Shown here piece after piece: positions 7,263 to 19,141 of a DNA stretch of 31,541 nucleotides. Position 1 is the stretch's first letter, and each line of letters begins with the position of its first letter. Below the pieces are notes generated by a model. It searched no databases. It was given only the letters and a program-made list of their open reading frames with translations, and was not told the origin of the DNA. The position numbers were made by a program, and so were the translations under genes. The stretch covers positions 1-31,541 of the forward strand of contig JAFYOG010000160.1 in NCBI GenBank assembly GCA_017560285.1, written 5' to 3'. This DNA comes from Clostridia bacterium (lineage in GTDB: Bacteria > Bacillota > Clostridia > Oscillospirales > CAG-382).

Positions 7263-8385
7263 GGTTAGTTTCTTCCTTTGCTTCGGTTTCTTCGGGATTT
7301 TCTGCGGTTTCTTCGGTGGTTTCTTCGGTGGTTTCTTCTTTATTTTCCCATTCCTTCATAGCTAAAACGCATTCCTCGTAAAAGTTAGGGAAATCGTCGG
7401 GAAGGGCGCATTTTAAAGAGGTTATACCTACTTCGATAATATCGTCCTCGGGTTCGCGGGTGGTGAGGTTTTGCATCCAAAGACCGGGCTTTGCAAGGAT
7501 GCGAATAAGCAGGTTATCGTGCTTGCCTGCATAACGTATAAATTCGTAGCCGATGCCCATGGTAAAGGGCAACAGGCAGATTTTTATAAGGCTTCTTAGC
7601 CATACGGTATCGATAGTGATAAAAATACCTATAAATATGGATAAAAGCATCATCGCGAACATAAACGAGGTGCCGCAACGGGGGTGGAAGCGGGATTGCT
7701 TTTTAACGTTTTCTACGGTAAGCTCTAAGCCTGCCTCGTAGCAGAAAATGCTTTTATGCTCTGCCCCGTGGTATTTGTAAACACGCTTCATATCGGGGAT
7801 AAGCGAGGTTAGCCAAATATACGCCACAAAAATAACGACCTTAAGCACGCCCTCGACAACACTGCGGATAACGCCGGTTGCCGATGCATTGCCGATTATA
7901 TATTTTATGCCGTTTTCGGTACGGGTAGGTTCGCCGAACCATTCCAAAACCAAGCCGCCGATAAAGGTGGGCAACCAAATAAACAGCAGTGCCGCCAAGG
8001 CAACGCCAAGCACCATTGCAACGGCGGAAACAACCGAAATAAGCCATTTTCCGCAATGCTTTTCTACCCATTTATCGAACTTTGATGCGTTTTCCTCTTG
8101 GTAATCTAACCCAAGCATATCGGTGCCCGTGTTAATGGTGGAAAAGGATTGCACCATAGATTCTATAAAAGCAACGAAACCGCGCAAAATGGGAAGCTTG
8201 AATATTTTGATTTTATCCGAAACAGAGCTGTTGGGCTTGCGGGTAACGGCTATTTTTTTGTTATCCATACGGCGCACTGCTATTGCGGTAAGGGTTTTGC
8301 TCTTCATCATAACCCCTTCGATAATAGCCTGACCGCCTACGCCACCCAGCCTGCAGTTTTTAGGCTGTTTGTCTTTTTTGCTCAT
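7252..8385 (-). CDS. DUF1385 (YqhQ-like) membrane protein
   Basis: GGQAIIEGVMM, YHGAEHKSIFCYE, SRFHPRCGTSF, PGLWMQNLTTREP. DUF1385 usually precedes prmC. Ends in an acidic E/T-rich tail. Confidence 0.9.
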   Translation of the reverse strand: MSKKDKQPKNCRLGGVGGQAIIEGVMMKSKTLTAIAVRRMDNKKIAVTRKPNSSVSDKIKIFKLPILRGFVAFIESMVQSFSTINTGTDMLGLDYQEENASKFDKWVEKHCGKWLISVVSAVAMVLGVALAALLFIWLPTFIGGLVLEWFGEPTRTENGIKYIIGNASATGVIRSVVEGVLKVVIFVAYIWLTSLIPDMKRVYKYHGAEHKSIFCYEAGLELTVENVKKQSRFHPRCGTSFMFAMMLLSIFIGIFITIDTVWLRSLIKICLLPFTMGIGYEFIRYAGKHDNLLIRILAKPGLWMQNLTTREPEDDIIEVGITSLKCALPDDFPNFYEECVLAMKEWENKEETTEETTEETAENPEETEAKEETNLEA

Positions 8386-8515
8386 TTATAATGCTCCTTG
8401 TTAAAACAAATGTAAACTGTTGTTATTGATTTTTCCTCAATTTTGTATTATACTATACTAAACCTAAAAATAAAACCCCAAATTAAAAAAATTTACAAGT
8501 TTTGGTATCTTATTT

Positions 8516-8845
8516 ATGGAAAATAAAGTTTTTGCAAAGAACGACAGCGGTTTTGTTTGCGGTAATTGCGGCAAAGAGGTACCCCCCTTGGGCTATACCT
8601 CGCGTAATCATTGCCCATATTGCCTTTATTCCCGCCATCTTGACGTTAACCCAGGGGACAGAGCATCCGATTGCGGCGGGCTAATGCGCCCCGTTGCCGT
8701 TACGTCCCACCCCAAAAAGGGCTTTGTTATCACCCACAAATGCACCCTTTGCGGCAGCGAACGGAACAACAAAATGCAAGCCGACGACGATACTTCCCTG
8801 CTTATAAAGCTTACCAACCCCTATTTTGCGGAGGAATATAAATGA
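8516..8845 (+). CDS. RNHCP domain protein (putative Zn-binding)
   Basis: FVCGNCG, RNHCPYCLYSRHLD, PGDRASDCGGLM, HKCTLCG. Confidence 0.88.
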   Translation: MENKVFAKNDSGFVCGNCGKEVPPLGYTSRNHCPYCLYSRHLDVNPGDRASDCGGLMRPVAVTSHPKKGFVITHKCTLCGSERNNKMQADDDTSLLIKLTNPYFAEEYK

Positions 8846-9894
8846 AAAAGCTTGACGAAAACAAAAAGAAGCAGCTTATTTCTATGGGCTTTGCCGCGTT
8901 GCTTGCCCTTGCGGCGTTTTTGGCGGCATTGGCTTTTAGAAGAAGCGCAGGTGTTATCGCAATGACACCCTTGGCGTTTGCTATCACCGCCGCCGCGGCT
9001 TTTTTGCCTATTGACGAAAAAACAAAAACCCTGTTTTTTGGCGTTACCGCCTTTTGCTTAAACACCGTTAACGAGCAAAAAATGAGATTTACCCTTATTT
9101 ACACCGCAATAATTACGGTTTCCTGCTTTATTTTTTCTATGGGCGCAAAATATATTTTGCAAAAGAAGAAAAAGGCGGTGGGAATCCCTCTTATAGCGGT
9201 ATGCTTGGTTGCTTGCACGGGTTTGGGCTTGGTATATATGGGCAACCCCGTTGCCGCCGCCAAGGCTAAAGCCGATATTAAGGAATACACCCAAGGGATT
9301 TACCCCGAAAGCGAAAACGCCGCTTTGGGAACGGTGGAGTTTTCGGATATTCAGTATAACTATGCCGACGGCACCTATTTTGTTTATGCCCAAAGCAGTG
9401 TTTACCCTGCCGACCAACAGATTATTTCTGTAAAAAACGGCGGTTTAACAGACCTTTTTAAGCCCTTGATGGAAGACCGAATTCTTGAACCTTATGCAAA
9501 ATCCTTTACCGCCGCTTTAAGAAAAAGCTTCCCCGACGATATGTTTACCGTAGAATGCGACAGCGTGGCATTGTTGCCCGATGAATCTTTGCTTGCCGCC
9601 GAAACCGGCGAATTTTACAGCGATATTACCTACGAAATATGGCTTGGCGGTATACAAAACAACACCGATATGACAGAAGCCGTTATTAGGTATATGAAGG
9701 TTATAGAAAAGCAAAAGCTGCCTTACGACAGAATTGTGTTTACCGGCGGCAGTAACCCTTGGATAGTGCGTGCCGTTACGGTAGAAAACATCACCTATAT
9801 TGATAACGACAATTACAGCGTGGATTTTGTATCCACCGCAACCTCTAACCGCTTTGACCGCTTTATGAATTATTGGATGAAGATAAAAAAATAA
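8842..9894 (+). CDS. Hypothetical membrane protein (several N-terminal hydrophobic segments, soluble C-terminal domain)
   Basis: 350-aa ORF with an ATGA overlap to the RNHCP gene, hydrophobic stretches in the first ~135 aa, and a terminator downstream. Confidence 0.75.
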   Translation: MKKLDENKKKQLISMGFAALLALAAFLAALAFRRSAGVIAMTPLAFAITAAAAFLPIDEKTKTLFFGVTAFCLNTVNEQKMRFTLIYTAIITVSCFIFSMGAKYILQKKKKAVGIPLIAVCLVACTGLGLVYMGNPVAAAKAKADIKEYTQGIYPESENAALGTVEFSDIQYNYADGTYFVYAQSSVYPADQQIISVKNGGLTDLFKPLMEDRILEPYAKSFTAALRKSFPDDMFTVECDSVALLPDESLLAAETGEFYSDITYEIWLGGIQNNTDMTEAVIRYMKVIEKQKLPYDRIVFTGGSNPWIVRAVTVENITYIDNDNYSVDFVSTATSNRFDRFMNYWMKIKK

Positions 9895-9899
9895 GCCTT

Positions 9900-9934
9900 A
9901 ACCGTCGGGTAAAAATCCCGACGGTTTATTTTTT
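9900..9934 (+). terminator. Intrinsic terminator after the membrane-protein gene
   Basis: Stem AACCGTCGGG / CCCGACGGTT, 7-nt loop, then TATTTTTT. Confidence 0.8.
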
Positions 9935-10410: not shown

Positions 10411-10446
10411 AACTGCACTTTCGGGCAGAAAGTGCAGTTATTTTTA
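10411..10446. terminator. Bidirectional terminator between mazF and the DUF4855 gene
   Basis: AACTGCACTTT / AAAGTGCAGTT stem, A-run on the left and T-rich run on the right, between convergent genes. Confidence 0.8.
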
Positions 10447-12543
10447 TTTCTTTTTGGATTTTGCAACGGTAGCAATGGCAACCACAACCATAAAGCCTGC
10501 CAAAAGGGCTATCATAGGGAACAGCCAAGGGGGCGTTTGCTCGGTTTGACCCGAAGACGGGGGAAGAGGAATATAAATATCCTCGCTTTCCTCGGGGGGT
10601 TGGGTTACGGGGGCAACTGTTACGTTAACGGTATGGGGCTTAGATTGAGAAAAGCCGTCGCTTACGCAAAGGGTAAAGCTGTCTACACCGGCAAAACCGC
10701 TTTCGGGGCTGTAAATTACCGCCGTTTTATCGGCAGAAACGGCAACCTTGCCGTTGGCGGGCTGTGCGGTTATAATAACCGAAATATCGCCCCAATAGGA
10801 GCTTGCATCGGCAATGGAAATAGGAACGATAGCATCACCCTCGGTAATTTCCACCGCTGTATTTCCGCTTATTTCGGGGGGCATATTGTTATAGTTCCCG
10901 TTTATATAACGGTAGGTTATATCGTAAATTCTGCGCAGACAAACACCCTGCTCCGACGAGGTTTTGGCATAACAGCAGTTATAAAGAAAGCCTATGCCCA
11001 TTCCCTGCTCGTACAGATTAACGGCGTTCATATACCCCGTGGTGCCGCCGTAGTAAAGCTGGGCTTCGTAATTGTTGCAGATTGCCTGATAATCCCAGCC
11101 GTTATCGTAGGCGTTAAACAGCTTGGAAAAGCCTATTTCCACGCCCATACGGTTGTTATATACGCTTTTTGCATATTGAGAAAGCATAGTCTGCTTATAG
11201 CTGCCGTTTAAGCCATGCTCGCCATAATTAGATTGCATTACCGCCGCAGTAAAGCCAAGCTCTTCCCATTGGTCGAACCCTGCAAAAAGATATGCAGAGG
11301 AATAAAAGCTTGCAAGGTTTTGCCGTTTTATATACTTGTTTATATCCTTTATAAGCTCTTCTTCCTGCAAGGAAAGGGTATAATCTACCCCTTGAATGTT
11401 TAGAAAGAAGCCAGATAAGTTAAGAAATTCGTAATTATTAAGCTTGAATTCGTCGATACATCTGCTTACGTACCATTTTACAATATCCAAGCGTTCGTCG
11501 GGTTCGGCGGAATATTCGTCGGTGCCGTCGTTATCTATATCGCCAAAGGGTAATTCGGTTAAAGCGGGATAAGGGATTGTAAAATAGACGTTTAGCTTAT
11601 CGGTTATGCCCAAAGCTTGGTAAGCTCTGCCTGCCACCTTATTAAGGGCATCTAAATCCTGCCCCAAGGTAAAGGTATGGGAAAGGTACATTTCCCATTC
11701 TGCAAAGCCCCATTGGCTTTTGCCGTCGGCGGGCAGGTTGCAGGGGGAAAGCAACACGCTGTCGAACATTTTGCCCTTTATTTCCCCTGCGGAATTAACG
11801 TAAGCCACGTAGGGTAAAAGCTCATCCTCGGTAAGAACGCCAAGGGTATGGTCGGTTTCCGCGTGGCCGTTATAAAGCTTTACAATATCCTTGCTTTGGT
11901 TAATCTGCGCGGTATAGCCCTTTTCCAAAGGCTCGTTTTTAGGGTCGAGAGGTCGTTCCGTACCTGCAAGAATGCTGTTGCCGTAAACCGCAACCTCGCT
12001 GCAATAAACGTAGCCGTCGGTGGCATATTCAAGCTTTGCATAGCGGGCGGAATAGGTACGGCGAAGAGCTATATCTATACCGTGAACCCCTTCCTTAACG
12101 TCTGTAAGCCGTTCGCGCAGGTCTTTTTCGCCAACCAACTGATAATCGGTGCCGTTATCCGAAAGATAAAGCTTTATGTACCTTGGCAGGTATATTTGCT
12201 TTTGGGGGGAATGCAAAAATATGGCAAAAGCCGAATCTACACCGCGGTTTTCGCCGAAATCGAACACAATATTGCGGCTTTTTCCGCCGTATGCCTTATA
12301 CCATGCCGCGCTTTCTGCGTTTAGGTCGCCCCAAACGTTATCGCTAAGCTTGCCGTTATCCTCGCCCATTGCAATACCATCGGGAGAAATGCTTCCGTAG
12401 GAATCCGAAATCGGTTCGCCGGTACAAACGTTATAGGGCAAGCCCGCGGAAAGATTTTCCTGCGGTTGTTCTGCCGTTGCCGTAAAGGAAAAAATATTTA
12501 TTATAAAAAGCGTTGCCAACAAAAAAGCCGTTATTTTTCGCAT
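10444..12543 (-). CDS. Secreted, C-terminally anchored DUF4855-domain protein with a probable discoidin/F5/8-like N-domain and an Ig/cadherin-like C-domain
   Basis: Signal peptide MRKITAFLLATLFII; YVAYVNSAGEIKGKMFDSVLL resembles DUF4855; PANGKVAVSADKTAVIYSPESGFAGVDSFT resembles Big_9/cadherin-like repeats; Pro-rich linker, TM helix and KSKKK tail. Confidence 0.7.
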   Translation of the reverse strand: MRKITAFLLATLFIINIFSFTATAEQPQENLSAGLPYNVCTGEPISDSYGSISPDGIAMGEDNGKLSDNVWGDLNAESAAWYKAYGGKSRNIVFDFGENRGVDSAFAIFLHSPQKQIYLPRYIKLYLSDNGTDYQLVGEKDLRERLTDVKEGVHGIDIALRRTYSARYAKLEYATDGYVYCSEVAVYGNSILAGTERPLDPKNEPLEKGYTAQINQSKDIVKLYNGHAETDHTLGVLTEDELLPYVAYVNSAGEIKGKMFDSVLLSPCNLPADGKSQWGFAEWEMYLSHTFTLGQDLDALNKVAGRAYQALGITDKLNVYFTIPYPALTELPFGDIDNDGTDEYSAEPDERLDIVKWYVSRCIDEFKLNNYEFLNLSGFFLNIQGVDYTLSLQEEELIKDINKYIKRQNLASFYSSAYLFAGFDQWEELGFTAAVMQSNYGEHGLNGSYKQTMLSQYAKSVYNNRMGVEIGFSKLFNAYDNGWDYQAICNNYEAQLYYGGTTGYMNAVNLYEQGMGIGFLYNCCYAKTSSEQGVCLRRIYDITYRYINGNYNNMPPEISGNTAVEITEGDAIVPISIADASSYWGDISVIITAQPANGKVAVSADKTAVIYSPESGFAGVDSFTLCVSDGFSQSKPHTVNVTVAPVTQPPEESEDIYIPLPPSSGQTEQTPPWLFPMIALLAGFMVVVAIATVAKSKKK

Positions 12544-12633
12544 TTTATTACTCCAAACCCATTATAAATTTATTATATTGTTATTTTGTCAAAAAATCAA
12601 GAGAAATAATACAATATTAAGGGAGTGATTTTT

Positions 12634-13326
12634 ATGTTGGAAAATCTGCAGGGCAGTTTTATGCTAAACAACGGCAATGCGGCGGTTTCGGCAGACCTTA
12701 AGGGCGGTAACGTTTTTGCCGCAGACGGCTTTTGCAATTACCTTTGGGAATACGGTCAAGAGGGCGATTTGCTGTGTCAACACCCTGCCGTACGCCCCTA
12801 CCGAAGGTTTAGGTACAACGAAAATGCTTGCGTTACAACCGCCTTGGGTTGTTGCAACGGCAACAGCGTTTATATTTTGGATAAGGATTTAAAAGAGCTT
12901 GGTTACGTTAGCCTAAACGGTCTGCAAAGGGACGGTTGCACAAGCTACGGCGGTTTAACCGATGCATCTGTAACCGTTATCGGCAACGAGCTGTTTTTTG
13001 TGGGTGCTTTTTTCGACGGGGCGTTTTTGTTCGATATTCAAGGCAAGCGGCTTACACGGCTGTGCGCGGTGGAAAGGAACGAAACGCTTACCGATTTTAT
13101 CTCTGCAGGGGACGATATTTACGCTATGGCGGTTATTTGCGATAACACGCAAATTATTACCGTTGCCCGCAACGGAATTATATACAACGGAATTCTTTCG
13201 CCGAAATATACGTTGCGTATGCTGTTTTACAAAAACGGCTGTGTTTATGGGCTTTTTGGGCAGGGTTATATTTATAACCGAATTTTTAAAATATTTTCCG
13301 AGGACGTTTTTTATCTGCCGCGGTAA
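12634..13326 (+). CDS. Hypothetical protein (Cys-containing, probably beta-rich)
   Basis: Long ORF with RBS AAGGGAG about 8 nt before ATG 12634 (the track's GTG at 12625 overlaps the RBS). No family recognised. Confidence 0.7.
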   Translation: MLENLQGSFMLNNGNAAVSADLKGGNVFAADGFCNYLWEYGQEGDLLCQHPAVRPYRRFRYNENACVTTALGCCNGNSVYILDKDLKELGYVSLNGLQRDGCTSYGGLTDASVTVIGNELFFVGAFFDGAFLFDIQGKRLTRLCAVERNETLTDFISAGDDIYAMAVICDNTQIITVARNGIIYNGILSPKYTLRMLFYKNGCVYGLFGQGYIYNRIFKIFSEDVFYLPR

Positions 13327-13368
13327 TTTTTAAGCCCCTTTGCAAATATAATTTTGCGGAGGGGTTTT

Positions 13369-13872
13369 ATGAAAAAAGCGTTTGCGATTATTATATTATC
13401 GGTTATATTTATCTGCGGTTGCGGCAACGAAGATATTAAAAACAAATTCGCCCTGCCGTTAGAGCTTACCGCAAGCCTTAACGGCAAGGATTATTTTATA
13501 CAGCGGATTACCCAAGAGGGCTATTCCTTAAGCTTTGATAAGGAACATCCCCTTTTCGGGTTAAATATTGAAATTTGGGGTGATAAGGGTACCGCAACGG
13601 TAGCAGATTTCGTTTGCCCCGTGGAAAGCGGATATTTCCCTGCACAGCACTGCCTTGCAAGGGCTGTAAGGCTTTTGAACGAAAGGGATATTTCTGCCGT
13701 AAAAACCAAAAAGGGTTTTAAGTACACTATTGACGAAACCGTTATTTTGGTGTATTATGATAACGATACAAAGCAGGTTATAGGCATTGAAGCAGAGGAG
13801 AACGGCAGGCGGTTTTATTTTTCCGTCCGTGCCATAACACCCTATGAAAAACCGAGTAACGGCGAAGGTTAA
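13369..13872 (+). CDS. Putative lipoprotein (possibly GerS/YdcC-like by synteny)
   Basis: RBS GGAGG; MKK + hydrophobic stretch + lipobox-like ICGC; directly upstream of alr. Confidence 0.7.
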   Translation: MKKAFAIIILSVIFICGCGNEDIKNKFALPLELTASLNGKDYFIQRITQEGYSLSFDKEHPLFGLNIEIWGDKGTATVADFVCPVESGYFPAQHCLARAVRLLNERDISAVKTKKGFKYTIDETVILVYYDNDTKQVIGIEAEENGRRFYFSVRAITPYEKPSNGEG

Positions 13873-14938
13873 CCTTAACACCATTCGCAACAATTACAAT
13901 TATATACAATCTATTTCCAACGGTAAAATTATGGCGGTTGTAAAAGCAGATGCTTACGGCCACGGCGCCATTGGCATTGCAAAAGAGCTTTCCGCCGCCG
14001 GCTGTACCGATTTTGCCGTTGCCTGCATTACCGAAGCGCAGGAGCTTCGCGCCGCAGGCATTAACGGAAACATTCTTATATTGGGCCCTACCGATGCCCG
14101 CTTTGCCGACGAAATTATCGCGGGGGATTTTATTCAGACCGTAGATAGCTTTGATTACGCCAAAAAGCTTTCGGAATACGGCAAGGTAAGGGTTCACGTT
14201 AAGGTAGATACGGGTATGTCCCGCATAGGTATTTATTGCCACGAAAGCGAAGACGTTGGCTTTGCCGCAAAAGAGGTTGCCGCAATTTCTTGCTGTGAAG
14301 GCATTGGCATGGAAGGGATTTTTACCCACTTTGCCGCCAGCGACGATTGCTGTGGGGATTATACCGAAAAGCAGTTTGCCGTATTTTCTGCCCTGCTTAA
14401 CCGTTTAGAGGAAATGAAGGTTAACGTGGGCACACGCCATTGCTGTAACAGCGCCGCTATTCTTAAATACCCCCGTATGCATTTGGATATGGTTCGCGCA
14501 GGTATTATTTTATACGGTCTTATGCCATCTAAATATTGCATCGACGGCAACATTCTGCCCGCAATGCGGCTTTCTGCCCGCGTTTGCGCGGTACATAAGC
14601 TTAACAAGGGCGACAGCGTAAGCTACGGCTGTACCTACACCGCCCAAGAGGATACCCGCGTGGCGGTAATTTCCATTGGCTATGCCGACGGCTTTTCCAG
14701 AGTATATTCCGGTAAGGAATTTATAAAGATTAACGGCAAAAAATTTGCCACCGTTGGTAAAATCTGTATGGATATGTGTATGGTCGATATCGGTAACGAT
14801 GCAGATTGCAAGGTTGGGGACGAGGCGGTTATATTTGAATCTGCCTTCGATATAGAACAGCTTGCCAACGCGTTGGGCACCATTAATTACGAGATTTTGT
14901 GCTCGTTAAAGCACCGCGTAAAGCTGGAATACAAATAA
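13844..14938 (+). CDS. alr: Alanine racemase
   Basis: PLP-lysine motif AVVKADAYGHGA, HVKVDTGMSRIG, GIFTHFA, VRAGIILYG, SVSYGCTY, IGYADG, GKICMDM, TINYEILC. Confidence 0.96.
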   Translation: MKNRVTAKVNLNTIRNNYNYIQSISNGKIMAVVKADAYGHGAIGIAKELSAAGCTDFAVACITEAQELRAAGINGNILILGPTDARFADEIIAGDFIQTVDSFDYAKKLSEYGKVRVHVKVDTGMSRIGIYCHESEDVGFAAKEVAAISCCEGIGMEGIFTHFAASDDCCGDYTEKQFAVFSALLNRLEEMKVNVGTRHCCNSAAILKYPRMHLDMVRAGIILYGLMPSKYCIDGNILPAMRLSARVCAVHKLNKGDSVSYGCTYTAQEDTRVAVISIGYADGFSRVYSGKEFIKINGKKFATVGKICMDMCMVDIGNDADCKVGDEAVIFESAFDIEQLANALGTINYEILCSLKHRVKLEYK

Positions 14939-14947
14939 TAAGCAAAC

Positions 14948-14979
14948 AAAAAAGATATGCCGCAAAGCATATCTTTTTT
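14948..14979. terminator. Bidirectional terminator between alr and the dockerin operon
   Basis: AAAAAAGATATGC / GCATATCTTTTTT perfect stem with a CGCAAA loop, between convergent genes. Confidence 0.82.
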
Positions 14980-14989
14980 ATTTTGTAAA

Positions 14990-15544
14990 TTATACCCAGT
15001 TATCCGACCAGCCGTTTTCGCCGTTGGTGGGATCGTAAGGGTCGCAGGAATAATCCTTGTTAATTTCATAGGTGCCGAAATATGCGCGCTTTACCTTAAT
15101 GTAATTAATAGGTCTAATGTCGCCCTTGGCATCTGCCCCTGCCGCCTGTCTGGCAAGAGAGTTTGCATAATAAGTGCCCATACAGGTACGCTTGGTAAGC
15201 AAATAATCGCGGGCGGTAAGCTCGCCGTCGCCATCGAAATCGCCCATAACCACAACGGTATACAACGCTCTGCCGTCGACTTTTACGGTAAAGCCGGTGC
15301 CCATATAGGTTGTGCTGGAGGGGTCAAGACGGGTGCCATCTTTATCGAATATTTCCACGCTTTTACCGGTATAAAAAGAGCGGAACACGTTTTGGGGTGT
15401 TTTTAGGGAAATGCCGTAAATAGTACCGTTTTTAATTGTGGGAATAAAATCAACGGTAACGGTTTCGGCATAAGCGCAAAGGCTGAACGCCGAAAGCAAT
15501 AACACGCAAGCCAATAATAAAGAAGTTAATCTAAGACCTTTCAT
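14990..15544 (-). CDS. Small secreted protein with a dockerin-like domain
   Basis: Signal peptide ending AYA; GDFDGDGELTARDYLLTKR Ca-loop/helix repeat and a degenerate second repeat (GADAKGDIRPINYIKVKRAYFG). Confidence 0.78.
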   Translation of the reverse strand: MKGLRLTSLLLACVLLLSAFSLCAYAETVTVDFIPTIKNGTIYGISLKTPQNVFRSFYTGKSVEIFDKDGTRLDPSSTTYMGTGFTVKVDGRALYTVVVMGDFDGDGELTARDYLLTKRTCMGTYYANSLARQAAGADAKGDIRPINYIKVKRAYFGTYEINKDYSCDPYDPTNGENGWSDNWV

Positions 15545-15545
15545 A

Positions 15546-16379
15546 TTACACCTCCACCCATTCTCCGGGGGTTTTTAAAGCCTTGTTGCCTGCTTCGATA
15601 ATGCCCATTACCGAAATAGTTTCGGCATGGTCGGCATAAATTTTGCCGGTTTTAAAGAAATCGCACAGGGCTTTTATAAAATTAGGGAAATAATCGCTCA
15701 TTTGGGGGATTTTTACGGTAGAGCCGTCGGTATAGTTAACGGTTAAATCGAAATCTACACCCGTCCAGCCGTAATGGCTTAACACCGCACGTCTGCCGCC
15801 TGAAAATTCTATAACCATAGATTCGTACATACCGCTGCCCACAGACATCATACGCTTAACGTCGCTGCCCATAAGCATAACGATAGGTTCTATCTGATGT
15901 ATTGCGTAGGTATCGAAATTGCCGGGCCCGCGGGAGTTTATAAAGCAAATGTTTTCTTTGCTAACACCCTCTAATTCGTTGGCAAAGCGCAATGCCGAGG
16001 TAGAAAAGAAGGGGGTGCTGTGCTTTTCGCCTATTTCGGTAATCTGCTTTGCAATTTCCTTAGAAAGGGCAAAGGTTTTATCTACGTAAACCGGCTTTCC
16101 GCTTGCCAAGGGCTCGCGGCATAAATCTAAATGACGTTCGGGGTTATCGGGGGAAAGCACGATAATGCAATCGCTTTTTTCCACAACCTCTTTAATGGTG
16201 CTGCATCTTTCTACACCGAACTTTTCGCACCATTGGTCGGTGGTAAGGCCGTTGGGTTTATCGATCTCGGCATAAGCGTAGGCTACCGTAAAATCGCTTC
16301 CGCACTGGTCTGCAATAAATTTAGGGTAATTGTTTGCGTGCCATTCATCAAGAAAATAATCAATAAAACCTATTTTCAC
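15546..16379 (-). CDS. Gfo/Idh/MocA-like oxidoreductase
   Basis: N-terminal Rossmann-like order, IIVLSPDNPERH, PVYVDKTF (EKP-like), FSTSALRF, YAIHQIEPIV. Confidence 0.75.
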   Translation of the reverse strand: MKIGFIDYFLDEWHANNYPKFIADQCGSDFTVAYAYAEIDKPNGLTTDQWCEKFGVERCSTIKEVVEKSDCIIVLSPDNPERHLDLCREPLASGKPVYVDKTFALSKEIAKQITEIGEKHSTPFFSTSALRFANELEGVSKENICFINSRGPGNFDTYAIHQIEPIVMLMGSDVKRMMSVGSGMYESMVIEFSGGRRAVLSHYGWTGVDFDLTVNYTDGSTVKIPQMSDYFPNFIKALCDFFKTGKIYADHAETISVMGIIEAGNKALKTPGEWVEV

Positions 16380-16382
16380 GGC

Positions 16383-17264
16383 TTATTCTCCCATCTTGCT
16401 TTTAAGAAAGCCAACCGCCATAAGTATATCTGCGTAAGGGTCTGCACCGCATTCCCGCTCGATGGTAAGGTAACCGTCGTAGCCGATATCCTCTAAAGCC
16501 TTAAGATATTCGTTAAAGGGAACGTTGCCCTCGCCAAGGGGAACCTCTAAGAAATAATCGGAAAGACGCAAATCCTCGATACCGCCCTCGGCAAAGAAGG
16601 TATAAACCTTGCGGGGGTCGATAATAAAGCCCTTGCCGTCCTTTGCGTGGGTGTGAACGATATAATCCTTAAGAATATGCACTGCGGCAACGGGGTCGTC
16701 GCCGGCGCACATAACAAGGTTTGCAGGGTCCATATTTACACCAAAGCCCTTGCTGTTTACGTCGTCAAGCAGCACCTTTAAGCGAGCCGCGGGCTCGGGG
16801 CCGGTTTCTACCGCAAAGGTAACGCCCAAAGAAGCGGCGTATTCGCCTATTTCGCGGCAGGCGGAAAGCATATTTTTGTATGCCTCGCATTCTTTATCTG
16901 CCTTAAGAATATCGTTTTTATCCTCGGGCACTACGCCGATATGGGTGGTAACCACCTTGGTTCCCAATTTTACAGCCAAATCTGCCGCCGCCTTAGATGC
17001 AGGCACCTTCCAAGCGTTTTCATCGGCACGTTCAAAGCCGTGGCCGCCGAAATCGCTGCAGATTGCAGAAATTTCCAAGCCGTATTTTTCTAATAAGCCC
17101 CGCACGCGGGCTACCTTTTCGTCATCGAAGGTATCGTACTTCATTTCGCCGTTTACAACGTAAAGCTGAATCCCCTGTGCGCCAACCTCTGCCGCCTTTG
17201 CAAGGGCAGATTCGAAGGGAAGAAGGAAGGAATCGGTAATAACGCCTATTTTAAATGTTTTCAT
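16383..17264 (-). CDS. Sugar phosphate isomerase/epimerase family (xylose isomerase-like TIM barrel)
   Basis: Metal-ligand pattern AVETGPE, NMDPANL, HTHAKD, LTIERE; VPLGEGNVPF. Confidence 0.88.
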   Translation of the reverse strand: MKTFKIGVITDSFLLPFESALAKAAEVGAQGIQLYVVNGEMKYDTFDDEKVARVRGLLEKYGLEISAICSDFGGHGFERADENAWKVPASKAAADLAVKLGTKVVTTHIGVVPEDKNDILKADKECEAYKNMLSACREIGEYAASLGVTFAVETGPEPAARLKVLLDDVNSKGFGVNMDPANLVMCAGDDPVAAVHILKDYIVHTHAKDGKGFIIDPRKVYTFFAEGGIEDLRLSDYFLEVPLGEGNVPFNEYLKALEDIGYDGYLTIERECGADPYADILMAVGFLKSKMGE

Positions 17265-17287
17265 AATTTTACCTCTTTAAAGATTTA

Positions 17288-17761
17288 TCAAACAAGCATT
17301 TCGAACACACCGTACGCAGTGTAATACAAAGTAAGAATTATTGCACCTGCGGAAACAACGCCGCAAGCAATGGGAAGAAAGCTTTTTCTAAGCTTTAAGC
17401 CAAGGGTTATGGCTATTAACGCCCCTGTCCAAGCACCGGTGCCGGGCAACGGGATTGCCACAAAAAGGAACAAGCCCCAAAACAGCGCTTTTTGCGCGCC
17501 TGACTTCATTTTTGCAACCTTTTTTTCGCCCATTTCCAATATTTTACGGAAGGGCTTGCCGAATTTGGGGAACTTTGCAAGCCAATTTAATACCTTGCCG
17601 CCGAAAATTATTAAAAACGGAACCGGCAATATGTTGCCTATAACCGAAAGCAGGGTTACCGCAACGACGTCGCCGCCGTTTGCCAAGCCGTAAGGGATAG
17701 CCCCGCGAAGCTCGATAATGGGGACCATGCTTATTAAAAACGTTACGATATAATTCAACAT
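17288..17761 (-). CDS. COG2426 / small multidrug export family membrane protein
   Basis: ISMVPIIELRGAIPYG, IGNILPVPFL, FVAIPLPGTGAWTG. Confidence 0.88.
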   Translation of the reverse strand: MLNYIVTFLISMVPIIELRGAIPYGLANGGDVVAVTLLSVIGNILPVPFLIIFGGKVLNWLAKFPKFGKPFRKILEMGEKKVAKMKSGAQKALFWGLFLFVAIPLPGTGAWTGALIAITLGLKLRKSFLPIACGVVSAGAIILTLYYTAYGVFEMLV

Positions 17762-17774
17762 ACTTTATCGCTTA

Positions 17775-19046
17775 TTAAATAGTGTAGGTGCCGAAATATG
17801 CACGCTTTAACAACAAATAATCTCTTGCATCTATTTTGCCGTTGCCGTTAATATCTGCAACAGACATTTGGCACTGAAGCGTATAGGTGCCGAAGTAGGC
17901 ACGCTTTAACAGCAAATAGTCTCTTGCATCTATTTTGCCGTTCATATTTACGTCGCCAACGGTGCCTTTATCGGGGTCGGGATTTAAATCGGGTTCGGGC
18001 TCGGGGCTTTCTTCGGGGTTGTTACCGCCGATAAACACGGGTTCTTCGCCGGGCTCGTAAACAGCAAAAGCGGCGCGTACAAGGTCGTTAATTTCGTTGG
18101 TTCTGCCTGCAGATTCGATGTTGATGTTGTAAATAGAAACCTGCATTCCAAGCTCTACGGTTGCTTTAAAATCGGAATAATCGTCGCTGTTAAGCCGATG
18201 AACGCCTATAAGGAAGCTTCCCTTGGGGATTTTCACCTTGGATTTATCGGTGTTTTTAACGTCTACGTAATCGATAATACCGTCGAGACCCGCAATAAGA
18301 ATTGCATAGTTCTTCATTGCGCTTTGGTTAAATTGATCGTCGCAGAACGCCTTTACGTATTCGCCAACGGTATAATCCTTGCTGGCGGCATAAAAGATAA
18401 CGTTGTTAACGTCGTTACGGTAGCCTGCCACGTGCAAGGGAATTGTATCGGAAGGAACGGGTGCGTTAACCGCGGGCTGAACCGCATAGCGCACGACGAT
18501 ATCCTCTACCTCTGCATCGCAATAGGTTTGCATATCGGAATTATATGCGCGGAAGTTCTTTATTTGGAACTTAATATTGTTTACGCGGCAGGATTTTTTT
18601 ACAAGGAAGGGGATTTTTATAACCAAGGAATCGTTATCTACAAAAGTGCCTGCACCCGAAACCAAATCGCTAAAAGCAAGCGTATATTTTGCGGCAGAGG
18701 TATCCAAGGTGCCCACACCCTCCCAGCTGGCAGGGTTAACGCTTATAAGCTTGGTAAAATCGAAAGCGTCGTTATCGCTGTCGTTTGCCGCCTTGGTAAC
18801 GGGGTCTACCTTGCTTTTTTCGTAATATAAATCGAACTCGATGGCAGAAACGCCGTCGTTTAAGCCAAAGTTAATATCCCGCAGGGATATGGTTACGCTA
18901 ATTTGACGTTCGGGGTTGTAATTTTTAGTAGAATCACCGGTATATACGGTAAAGGATTTTGTGTTATCGAGTTTTGATGCCGAAACCGATATACACAACG
19001 GCAACAGCATAAGCGCCGCCATAATTATTGCCAATAATTTTTTCAT
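17775..19046 (-). CDS. Secreted protein with an N-terminal cohesin-like domain, an unknown middle domain, a Pro/Glu/Asp linker and a C-terminal dockerin
   Basis: Signal peptide; VTISLRDIN..GVSAIEFDLYYEKSKV...FLVK is cohesin-like (moderate support); PEESPEPEPDLNPDPD linker; two canonical dockerin repeats (GDVNMNGKIDARDYLLLKR, ADINGNGKIDARDYLLLKR). Confidence 0.8.
   Translation of the reverse strand: MKKLLAIIMAALMLLPLCISVSASKLDNTKSFTVYTGDSTKNYNPERQISVTISLRDINFGLNDGVSAIEFDLYYEKSKVDPVTKAANDSDNDAFDFTKLISVNPASWEGVGTLDTSAAKYTLAFSDLVSGAGTFVDNDSLVIKIPFLVKKSCRVNNIKFQIKNFRAYNSDMQTYCDAEVEDIVVRYAVQPAVNAPVPSDTIPLHVAGYRNDVNNVIFYAASKDYTVGEYVKAFCDDQFNQSAMKNYAILIAGLDGIIDYVDVKNTDKSKVKIPKGSFLIGVHRLNSDDYSDFKATVELGMQVSIYNINIESAGRTNEINDLVRAAFAVYEPGEEPVFIGGNNPEESPEPEPDLNPDPDKGTVGDVNMNGKIDARDYLLLKRAYFGTYTLQCQMSVADINGNGKIDARDYLLLKRAYFGTYTI
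17782..17942. repeat. 62-bp direct repeat pair encoding the two dockerin segments
   Basis: 17782-17843 versus 17881-17942, 99-bp offset, 57/62 identical by hand alignment. Confidence 0.9.
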
Positions 19047-19112
19047 ACCGAATAGCCTTTCGTTTTTTTATTTTTGTGCCCAATTACAAAAAATCGGCAT
19101 ATACTCGGTTTG

Positions 19113-19141
19113 ATTTTAACAAAATAAACATAAAAGGTCAA
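19113..19141 (-). promoter_or_regulatory. sigmaA-type promoter of the cohesin/dockerin operon
   Basis: Minus strand TTGACC, 17-bp spacer, TAAAAT with extended TGn. Confidence 0.65.

Follow-up and report, generated by a model that had tools for sequence, protein, structure and literature searches.

The 31,541-nucleotide contig JAFYOG010000160.1 of an uncultured clostridial genome (assembly GCA_017560285.1, lineage CAG-382 of the Oscillospirales; this whole stretch is referred to as the window) carries five consecutive genes in which secreted proteins of the cohesin–dockerin type bracket a single membrane protein and two sugar-type enzymes of the cytoplasm (Table 1). These encode, from the 5′ end, a cohesin–X–dockerin protein (P1), an integral membrane protein of family PF06695 (P2), a xylose-isomerase-like TIM barrel (P3), a divergent Gfo/Idh/MocA-fold protein (P4) and a small dockerin-like protein (P5). 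P2–P3–P4, in many cases with P5, constitute a portable block, and the cohesin–dockerin set against which P1 and P5 are to be seen is non-cellulosomal. On this basis, we tentatively propose a loose coupling between an extracellular cohesin/X-dockerin pair and a module that takes up and converts a sugar derived from a glycan, a reading to which we give somewhat less than an even chance.

Conservation of the gene order

Each of the five proteins was searched in 40 relatives, 80 of 478 loci with relatives of P4 were fetched, and the locus counts refer to 56 loci with a P4 of at least 60% identity. P2 lies 5′ of P4 in 42 of these loci, P3 directly 5′ of P4 in 40 and P5 directly 3′ of P4 in 21 (in both genomic contexts), and P1 is present in 12. 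The P2–P3–P4 core recurs in approximately 40 species and in two contexts, that is, after sigK (25 loci) and between murB and alr (approximately 22 loci); given this recurrence, chance juxtaposition was rejected. P1 is confined to the murB–alr clade, where all 12 loci that contain it also contain P5, and the P4 tree shows two joint losses of the two genes, each on a well-supported branch. For every one of the five genes, there is at least one relative that lacks it. As partial gene combinations exist, no component is obligate, and a fixed five-component machine was likewise rejected; the locus is a mosaic. The most unusual point, which is unexplained, is the tight and context-independent linkage of P5 to a cytoplasmic enzyme gene: P5 is single-copy, and its full-length homologues in 24 genomes of the genus are all found at this locus.

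The slot 5′ of P2 holds P1, a zinc-ribbon protein, a 300-residue membrane protein or nothing (for example, in P1-less relatives, a 300-residue protein with an N-terminal membrane helix at locus L115:7686-8588, minus strand, and a 362-residue zinc-ribbon protein at L015:5486-6574). In nine loci, a gene for a 516-residue lipoprotein is inserted between P2 and P3 (for example, L030:5553-7103 and L119:7316-8770). This lipoprotein matched no Pfam or PDB entry, and a paralogue in the source genome (L094:8290-9480) has a sub-threshold match to SBP_bac_1; the inserted protein may be an orphan solute-binding protein. Distant homologues of P4 (50–55% identity) adjoin AraC regulators, canonical IolG-like Gfo dehydrogenases and TIM barrels.

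The sigma factor encoded in the first context scores 282 bits with NCBIfam model PRK05803 (cut-off 252) and is accordingly of the SigK type. The gap between sigK and P2 contains sigma-A-type promoters that match the consensus at 12 of 12 positions in L023 (6592-6620) and at 11 of 12 in L034 (5008-5036), and because the block keeps its own near-consensus promoter of this type, its adjacency to sigK is probably positional. In the source genome, sigK is located on another contig (L114:6312-7088) and is followed by the gene for an 845-residue M23-peptidase protein (7364-9901), not by the PF06695 block.

The TIM-barrel and Gfo-fold enzyme pair

P3 matches the Pfam family AP_endonuc_2 over residues 21–278 (134.4 bits against a cut-off of 31.1), which agrees with its first description as a TIM barrel, and its best PDB match is 3tva (2.4e-18). 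The best NCBIfam model for P3 is IolE, at a score far too low for an equivalog (33.8 against 290), its score with the L-ribulose-5-phosphate 3-epimerase model is 31.8 against 272, and the best model for P4 is IolG (23.5 against 355); neither protein reached the cut-offs of the IolE, IolG, UlaE or IolO equivalogs. A paralogue of P3 on contig C76 has only housekeeping neighbours (murE, dapF and OAD), which give no hint of function.

The N-terminal domain of P4 matches GFO_IDH_MocA (28.7 bits), and a structural model (AlphaFold2, pLDDT 93.9) confirmed a two-domain Gfo fold with an N-terminal Rossmann-like domain and a C-terminal alpha/beta domain. Foldseek aligned the model with many members of the Gfo family (E-values of 1e-15 to 1e-13, TMq of 0.77–0.82); the best matches are inositol dehydrogenases, WlbA, GenD2, KanD2 and DgpA2 are also among them, and P4 is approximately 60 residues shorter than these proteins. 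At the position of the dinucleotide-binding loop, all 24 aligned members have an invariant acidic/aromatic segment (G-F-I-D-x-x-L-D-E-W-H-A), and the invariant residues K101 (in D-K-T) and H161 (in H-Q-x-E-P) occupy the places expected for the conserved Lys of the EKP motif and the catalytic His downstream of it, as judged by position only. At least 2288 proteins make up the family; all come from uncultured Clostridia, and their annotation goes no further than hypothetical protein or ‘predicted dehydrogenase’.

In 14 of 40 adjacent pairs, P3 and P4 form a single in-frame fusion (564–589 residues; L023:7140-8834, L037:7068-8837 and 12 further loci), two of these fusions having been verified by Pfam as AP_endonuc_2 plus GFO_IDH_MocA, and searches of relatives returned P3–P4 open frames of 579–713 residues. 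These natural (Rosetta-stone) fusions show that P3 and P4 are a functional pair that forms one cytoplasmic enzyme unit, which upholds the pairing of sugar enzymes in the preliminary description of this DNA.

The PF06695 membrane protein

P2 matches PF06695 over the full length of the profile (134.5 bits against a cut-off of 30.7) and matched no NCBIfam model. Remote homology and phylogeny place PF06695 as an early, separate branch of the DedA superfamily with two re-entrant loops; the family lacks the two DedA sequence motifs, has no characterised member and is of unknown function (bioRxiv 10.1101/2020.12.18.423352). The characterised DedA members described in two reports flip undecaprenyl phosphate (UptA-type) or phosphatidylethanolamine (PetA) (PMC9876793, PMC10193950), and P2 shares the superfamily with these proteins, yet not the branch or the motifs. 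There is no evidence behind the family name ‘small multidrug export’, and the suggestion of a possible exporter, which had been derived from this name, was not sustained.

The secreted proteins

P1 consists of a signal peptide (residues 1–24), a cohesin (approximately 30–187), an X domain (189–329), a linker rich in Pro, Asp and Glu, and a dockerin (363–423), and is of the adaptor-scaffoldin type. The cohesin scores 27.9 bits with Pfam Cohesin (cut-off 24.1), and the structural model of P1 (pLDDT 84) aligned with solved type I cohesin modules in Foldseek (TM scores of 0.74–0.80, normalised by target); the dockerin scores 48.6 bits with Dockerin_1 and has two canonical DxNxNGxIDxxD loops. Both modules had been recognised from the letters alone, as had the absence of a glycoside hydrolase domain from P1 and P5, which searches of Pfam and NCBIfam corroborated.

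The X domain is a rare and uncharacterised extracellular module. Its sequence matched no PDB entry, and the Foldseek search with the whole P1 model was dominated by the cohesin and gave no fold assignment for this domain. A profile search retrieved 118 of 1.84 billion cluster representatives (E ≤ 1e-3), with 1–8 copies in each protein and protein lengths of up to 3702 residues. Among 31 X-domain proteins examined, 25 contain F5/8 type C (CBM32-like) domains and 20 contain a dockerin. The domain is duplicated in some P1 orthologues, and a further copy is encoded in the same genome (L094:17668-18099). In most P1 orthologues, the C terminus resembles P5 in that it combines a small beta module with a degenerate dockerin; a linker with the genome-standard dockerin is found only in P1 of the sub-clade to which the window belongs.

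P5 has a signal peptide (residues 1–26), a small beta module (approximately 27–98), a dockerin-like module (99–160) and a conserved C-terminal tail that ends in a nearly invariant GWxxxW motif. Of its two calcium loops, the first is canonical; the second has degenerated and lacks calcium ligands, although its helix is kept. P5 aligns with dockerin modules of the same genome (E-values of 1e-11 to 1e-17) and is homologous to the ends of larger proteins that consist of a beta module plus a dockerin (E-values down to 1e-20), one of which, encoded in the same genome, is a glucosaminidase–SH3 protein. The most fitting description of P5 is that of a cargo-less X-dockerin-like protein.

A non-cellulosomal cohesin–dockerin set

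The source genome is a metagenome-assembled genome of 1.77 Mb (96% complete, 237 contigs), and its clade comprises gut genomes of 1.2–2.4 Mb from samples of ruminants, horse, rabbit, chicken and human. Dockerin_1 matches 42 places in this genome and Cohesin four; the genome-wide count, for which the preliminary description had called, thus comes to approximately 40 dockerin proteins and four cohesin proteins (43 proteins in all). The cohesin–dockerin background is non-cellulosomal, as had been supposed: among the 25 commonest of the 36 Pfam families in the 43 proteins, no cellulase or amylase family (GH5, GH9, GH48, GH13 and so on) was found. The partner domains are BspA-type leucine-rich repeats (LRR_5), F5/8 type C, DUF4855, GDPD, Metallophos, NAGPA, CHAP, GH25, glucosaminidase, Amidase_3 and SH3.

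Approximately 35 of the approximately 42 dockerins, including that of P1, are near-identical, and their two repeats are also alike (for example, L082:4991-5146, L084:4361-4516 and window 17802-17957), a pattern indicative of concerted evolution and of one shared binding specificity. The outliers are on contigs C181, C31 and C127, in a second module on C37, and in P5. Two of the four cohesin proteins have a single cohesin (553 and 607 residues; L112:10276-11934 and L103:14782-16602, both minus strand) and share a C terminus composed of PGDATS, a hydrophobic helix and KTRK or KTRR, not LPXTG; they probably anchor the system in the membrane or wall. The other two, that is, P1 and a 634-residue paralogue, both contain dockerins. 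A comparison of the presence of P5 with that of genomic cohesins was uninformative, with cohesins in 10 of 10 sampled genomes, with or without P5.

Operon layout and flanking genes

The five open reading frames lie within window positions 14990-19141, all on the minus strand, with intergenic gaps of 13, 23, 3 and 1 bp from P1 to P5. Judged by this spacing and by the predicted promoter and terminator, they form one apparent transcription unit, and the spacing suggests that the five genes are co-regulated; coordinates and signal scan reproduced the layout first reported, with one promoter and one terminator. The promoter candidate is approximately 65 nt 5′ of the P1 start and is the top minus-strand match in the region, in which promoter-like sites are not in excess of expectation (13, against 10.5 ± 3.1 in shuffled sequences). 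The terminator is directly 3′ of the P5 stop codon and is common to the convergent alr gene (13844-14938, plus strand); minus-strand terminator-like sites within the operon have just 5-bp stems, all in coding sequence. The weak promoter-like match at the P2/P3 junction has a stronger counterpart (11/12) at the same junction of L023 and is, speculatively, a possible internal promoter. Shine–Dalgarno-like sequences precede P1, P3, P4 and P5, and that of P5 falls among the final codons of P4, an arrangement suggestive of translational coupling between the two genes. The GC content of the operon is that of its surroundings, and an Rfam scan of the window matched no RNA family and hence no riboswitch in the leader.

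Table 1 Features of the five-gene operon, in window coordinates
Feature	Position	Strand	Description
P1	17775-19046	-	423 residues, secreted cohesin–X–dockerin protein
X domain of P1	18060..18482	-	residues 189-329, conserved alpha/beta extracellular module
Dockerin of P1	17778..17960	-	70-87% identical to ~35 near-identical dockerins of the same genome
P2	17288-17761	-	157 residues, PF06695 (COG2426) integral membrane protein, DedA superfamily
P3	16383-17264	-	293 residues, cytoplasmic xylose-isomerase-like TIM-barrel enzyme
P4	15546-16379	-	277 residues, GTG start, cytoplasmic divergent Gfo/Idh/MocA-fold protein
P5	14990-15544	-	184 residues, secreted cargo-less X-dockerin-like protein
Sigma-A-like promoter candidate	19113..19141	-	TTGACC-17-TAAAAT, upstream TG (extended -10), 10/12 consensus match
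Weak promoter-like match, P2/P3 junction	17263..17291	-	9/12
Bidirectional intrinsic terminator	14944-14983	both	13-18 bp stem, T-runs on each strand

The operon is flanked by housekeeping genes, with alr on one side and murB, whiA, dnaE and the gene for a class A penicillin-binding protein on the other. Two conserved open reading frames 5′ of alr (12625-13326 and 13354-13872, both plus strand; 233 and 172 residues) matched no Pfam or NCBIfam model and are syntenic in many relatives at 36–45% identity. Next to these, a DUF4855 protein with Big_9/cadherin-like domains (10444-12543, minus strand) keeps its synteny beside alr in relatives; DUF4855 proteins are abundant in the genome, and others carry dockerins (for example, L103:13168-14526).

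Proposed explanation and alternatives

Assuming that the operon is of composite origin, an older portable core (P2–P3–P4, often followed by P5) would have come to lie between murB and alr in the lineage of the window, and the P1 adaptor would then have been gained upstream. The standard dockerin of P1 would dock onto one or other of the two single-cohesin proteins anchored in the membrane, and its cohesin would hold P5 or another dockerin protein. The X domain (found elsewhere with CBM32-type F5/8 type C domains) and the modules of P5 may touch an extracellular glycan or wall polymer, from which a small sugar-like product would cross the membrane, with P2 as the candidate carrier. P3–P4 may then couple the oxidation of a hydroxyl group to isomerisation, epimerisation or elimination, in a reaction of the IolG/IolE type or similar to that of 3-keto-glycoside pathways. 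What binds what, the nature of the substrate, a transport function for P2 and redox catalysis by P4 are all inferred. As every component is dispensable in some species, the coupling would be loose rather than obligate.

Several observations weigh against this explanation. All five genes are found together in only 5 of approximately 29 sampled murB–alr species (the window, L016, G023, G017 and G018), and the conservation of gene order that the preliminary description set as a test extends to the recurring order but not to the full set; the same slot otherwise holds the combinations 1-2-4-5 (in most species), 1-4-5, 2-3-4, 2-4 or 2-5, and most carriers of the P2–P3–P4 core are without P1 and P5. 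The co-variation of P1 and P5 is not statistically significant because it comprises only two independent events. Pfam and NCBIfam searches found no glycoside hydrolase, regulator or classical sugar transporter within the operon, and PF06695 is without a demonstrated transport substrate. The dinucleotide-binding loop (GxGxxG/A after strand 1) is absent from 24 of 24 aligned members of the P4 family, so that although the Gfo/Idh/MocA-like label stood with respect to fold, the oxidoreductase chemistry implied by ‘redox’ is conjectural. P5, similarly, is dockerin-like by its homology to genomic dockerin modules, but its match to Pfam Dockerin_1 covers the first repeat only and is below significance (E = 0.036).

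A stricter form of the proposal takes P1 and P5 as dedicated partners by which a unit in contact with glycan (the X domain plus the P5 modules) is held at the cell surface, and has this pair genetically hard-wired to a DedA-type carrier and a fused TIM-barrel/Gfo enzyme; the operon would then be a Gram-positive counterpart, built on cohesin and dockerin, of Sus-like capture, import and conversion. We consider this improbable; if true, it would provide the first functional context for PF06695 and for the GxGxxG-less Gfo/Idh/MocA clade.

The most serious alternative, although in our judgement an unlikely one, is that the genes are merely co-located, that is, that the murB–alr interval is a permissive and fast-changing slot in which P2–P3–P4 and P1/P5 are accessory genes with nothing in common but a promoter, and that descent within the genus preserves their order. 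The mosaic locus, with each gene absent somewhere and variable content 5′ of P2, is what would be expected in this case. P1 evolves fast (25–51% identity among relatives, against 77–82% for P4), dockerin proteins account for approximately 2.5% of the genes in the source genome, such that neighbours of this kind are not rare, and the presence of P3 is independent of that of P1 or P5. Mere co-location accounts less well for P5, which lies 3′ of P4 in two unrelated contexts as a single-copy, locus-specific gene and, across a 1-bp gap, has its ribosome-binding site inside P4. Moreover, the P2–P3–P4–P5 block appears to have moved as a unit, and P1 was never seen without P5.

A role in building the cell envelope seems to us improbable. 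P2 would then be a DedA-like flippase of a lipid or lipid carrier, P3–P4 would modify a sugar of a wall or surface polymer, and P1 and P5 (through its GW tail) would attach to this polymer, the purpose being surface display and not nutrition. The flippase activity described for DedA proteins (PMC9876793, PMC10193950) would suit this role, but PF06695 lacks both DedA motifs and any characterised member. The neighbouring cell-wall genes (murB, alr and the class A penicillin-binding protein gene) also favour it, although this context is lineage-specific and the block follows sigK elsewhere. Wall-active enzymes are numerous among the dockerin proteins of the genome, the GWxxxW ending of P5 is almost invariant, and biosynthetic sugar dehydrogenases (WlbA, GenD2 and KanD2) are among the fold matches of P4; however, the operon and its conserved neighbours contain no glycosyltransferase, polymerase or nucleotide-sugar gene, and the AraC and IolG-like neighbours of distant P4 homologues, together with the inserted lipoprotein that resembles a solute-binding protein, point to catabolism.

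A late mother-cell role in sporulation (for example, in spore surface glycan or coat assembly) is very improbable: a SigK-type gene is directly 5′ and co-directional in 25 of the 56 loci and in seven genomes of the genus, but the near-perfect sigma-A-type promoter in the sigK–P2 gap weakens this reading, the source genome has sigK on another contig and a sigma-A-like operon promoter, and sigK and the P2 homologue are non-adjacent in other sampled families of the order.

Relation to known systems

The sca cluster of Ruminococcus flavefaciens combines scaffoldin genes with that for CttA, a non-catalytic X-dockerin protein that carries cellulose-binding cargo, and encodes extracellular components only; the operon described here adds a membrane protein and two cytoplasmic enzymes. 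P5 resembles X-dockerin dyads in its beta module and its dockerin with a degenerate second calcium loop, but differs from CttA in that a tail of 25 residues is all the cargo it has. There are also known cases of divergent or naturally truncated dockerins that pair with a cohesin of their own. Related structures have been reported (PMC5429695, PMC12270676). Adjacent genes for a Gfo dehydrogenase and a xylose-isomerase-like TIM barrel are likewise familiar from IolG/IolE, from C-glycoside cleavage by DgpA/DgpBC and from 3-keto-glycoside pathways (BT_2157-2159 type). P3 and P4 share the adjacency and the two folds with these pairs, whereas they score far below the equivalog cut-offs for IolG/IolE, and P4 is shorter and without the GxGxxG loop. 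To our knowledge, neither a fusion of such a pair nor one followed by a secreted dockerin-like gene has been described.

The amylosome of Ruminococcus bromii (Sca1/Amy4 and Sca2–Sca4; 26 dockerin and four cohesin proteins, with leucine-rich-repeat and peptidase proteins among its cargo; PMC4611034) is similar to the present set in size, in leucine-rich-repeat cargo and in an anchored single-cohesin protein. Amy4, for which self-binding has been shown (PMC4611034), and P1 each combine a cohesin with a C-terminal dockerin; Amy4, however, has a GH13 catalytic module, whereas P1 has only the uncharacterised X domain. The set described here also differs in that no amylase or cellulase is among the listed families of its dockerin proteins and in that its anchors have a transmembrane helix after PGDATS and not an LPXTG signal, and the R. 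bromii study describes no operon of scaffoldin and cytoplasmic enzyme genes (PMC4611034). The source genome fits the category of presumably non-cellulolytic ‘scaffoldin-containing’ microbes, whose single-cohesin proteins bear a transmembrane helix at the C terminus and whose dozens of dockerin proteins are not plant-cell-wall enzymes; that survey covers other taxa and reports no operon link to PF06695, TIM-barrel and Gfo-like genes (PMC11557425).

Each component therefore belongs to a known kind, and non-cellulosomal cohesin–dockerin systems are already documented. In the literature searched, the operon link between a cohesin adaptor, a dockerin-like protein, PF06695 and a TIM-barrel–Gfo pair is undescribed, as are the loop-less Gfo clade with its fusions and the X domain.

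Cohesin–dockerin systems are understood almost entirely as machines for the breakdown of plant fibre or starch. The clade described here uses cohesin and dockerin connectors for approximately 40 proteins with peptidoglycan hydrolase, phosphodiesterase, lectin-like and leucine-rich-repeat modules. If the link within the operon is functional, surface assembly would be tied to intracellular metabolism in a manner undescribed for cellulosomes, and the locus would provide experimental handles on PF06695, on the loop-less Gfo-fold clade (approximately 2,300 proteins) and on the X domain. If the link is merely positional, the locus would still illustrate clearly how streamlined gut genomes gain and lose modules.

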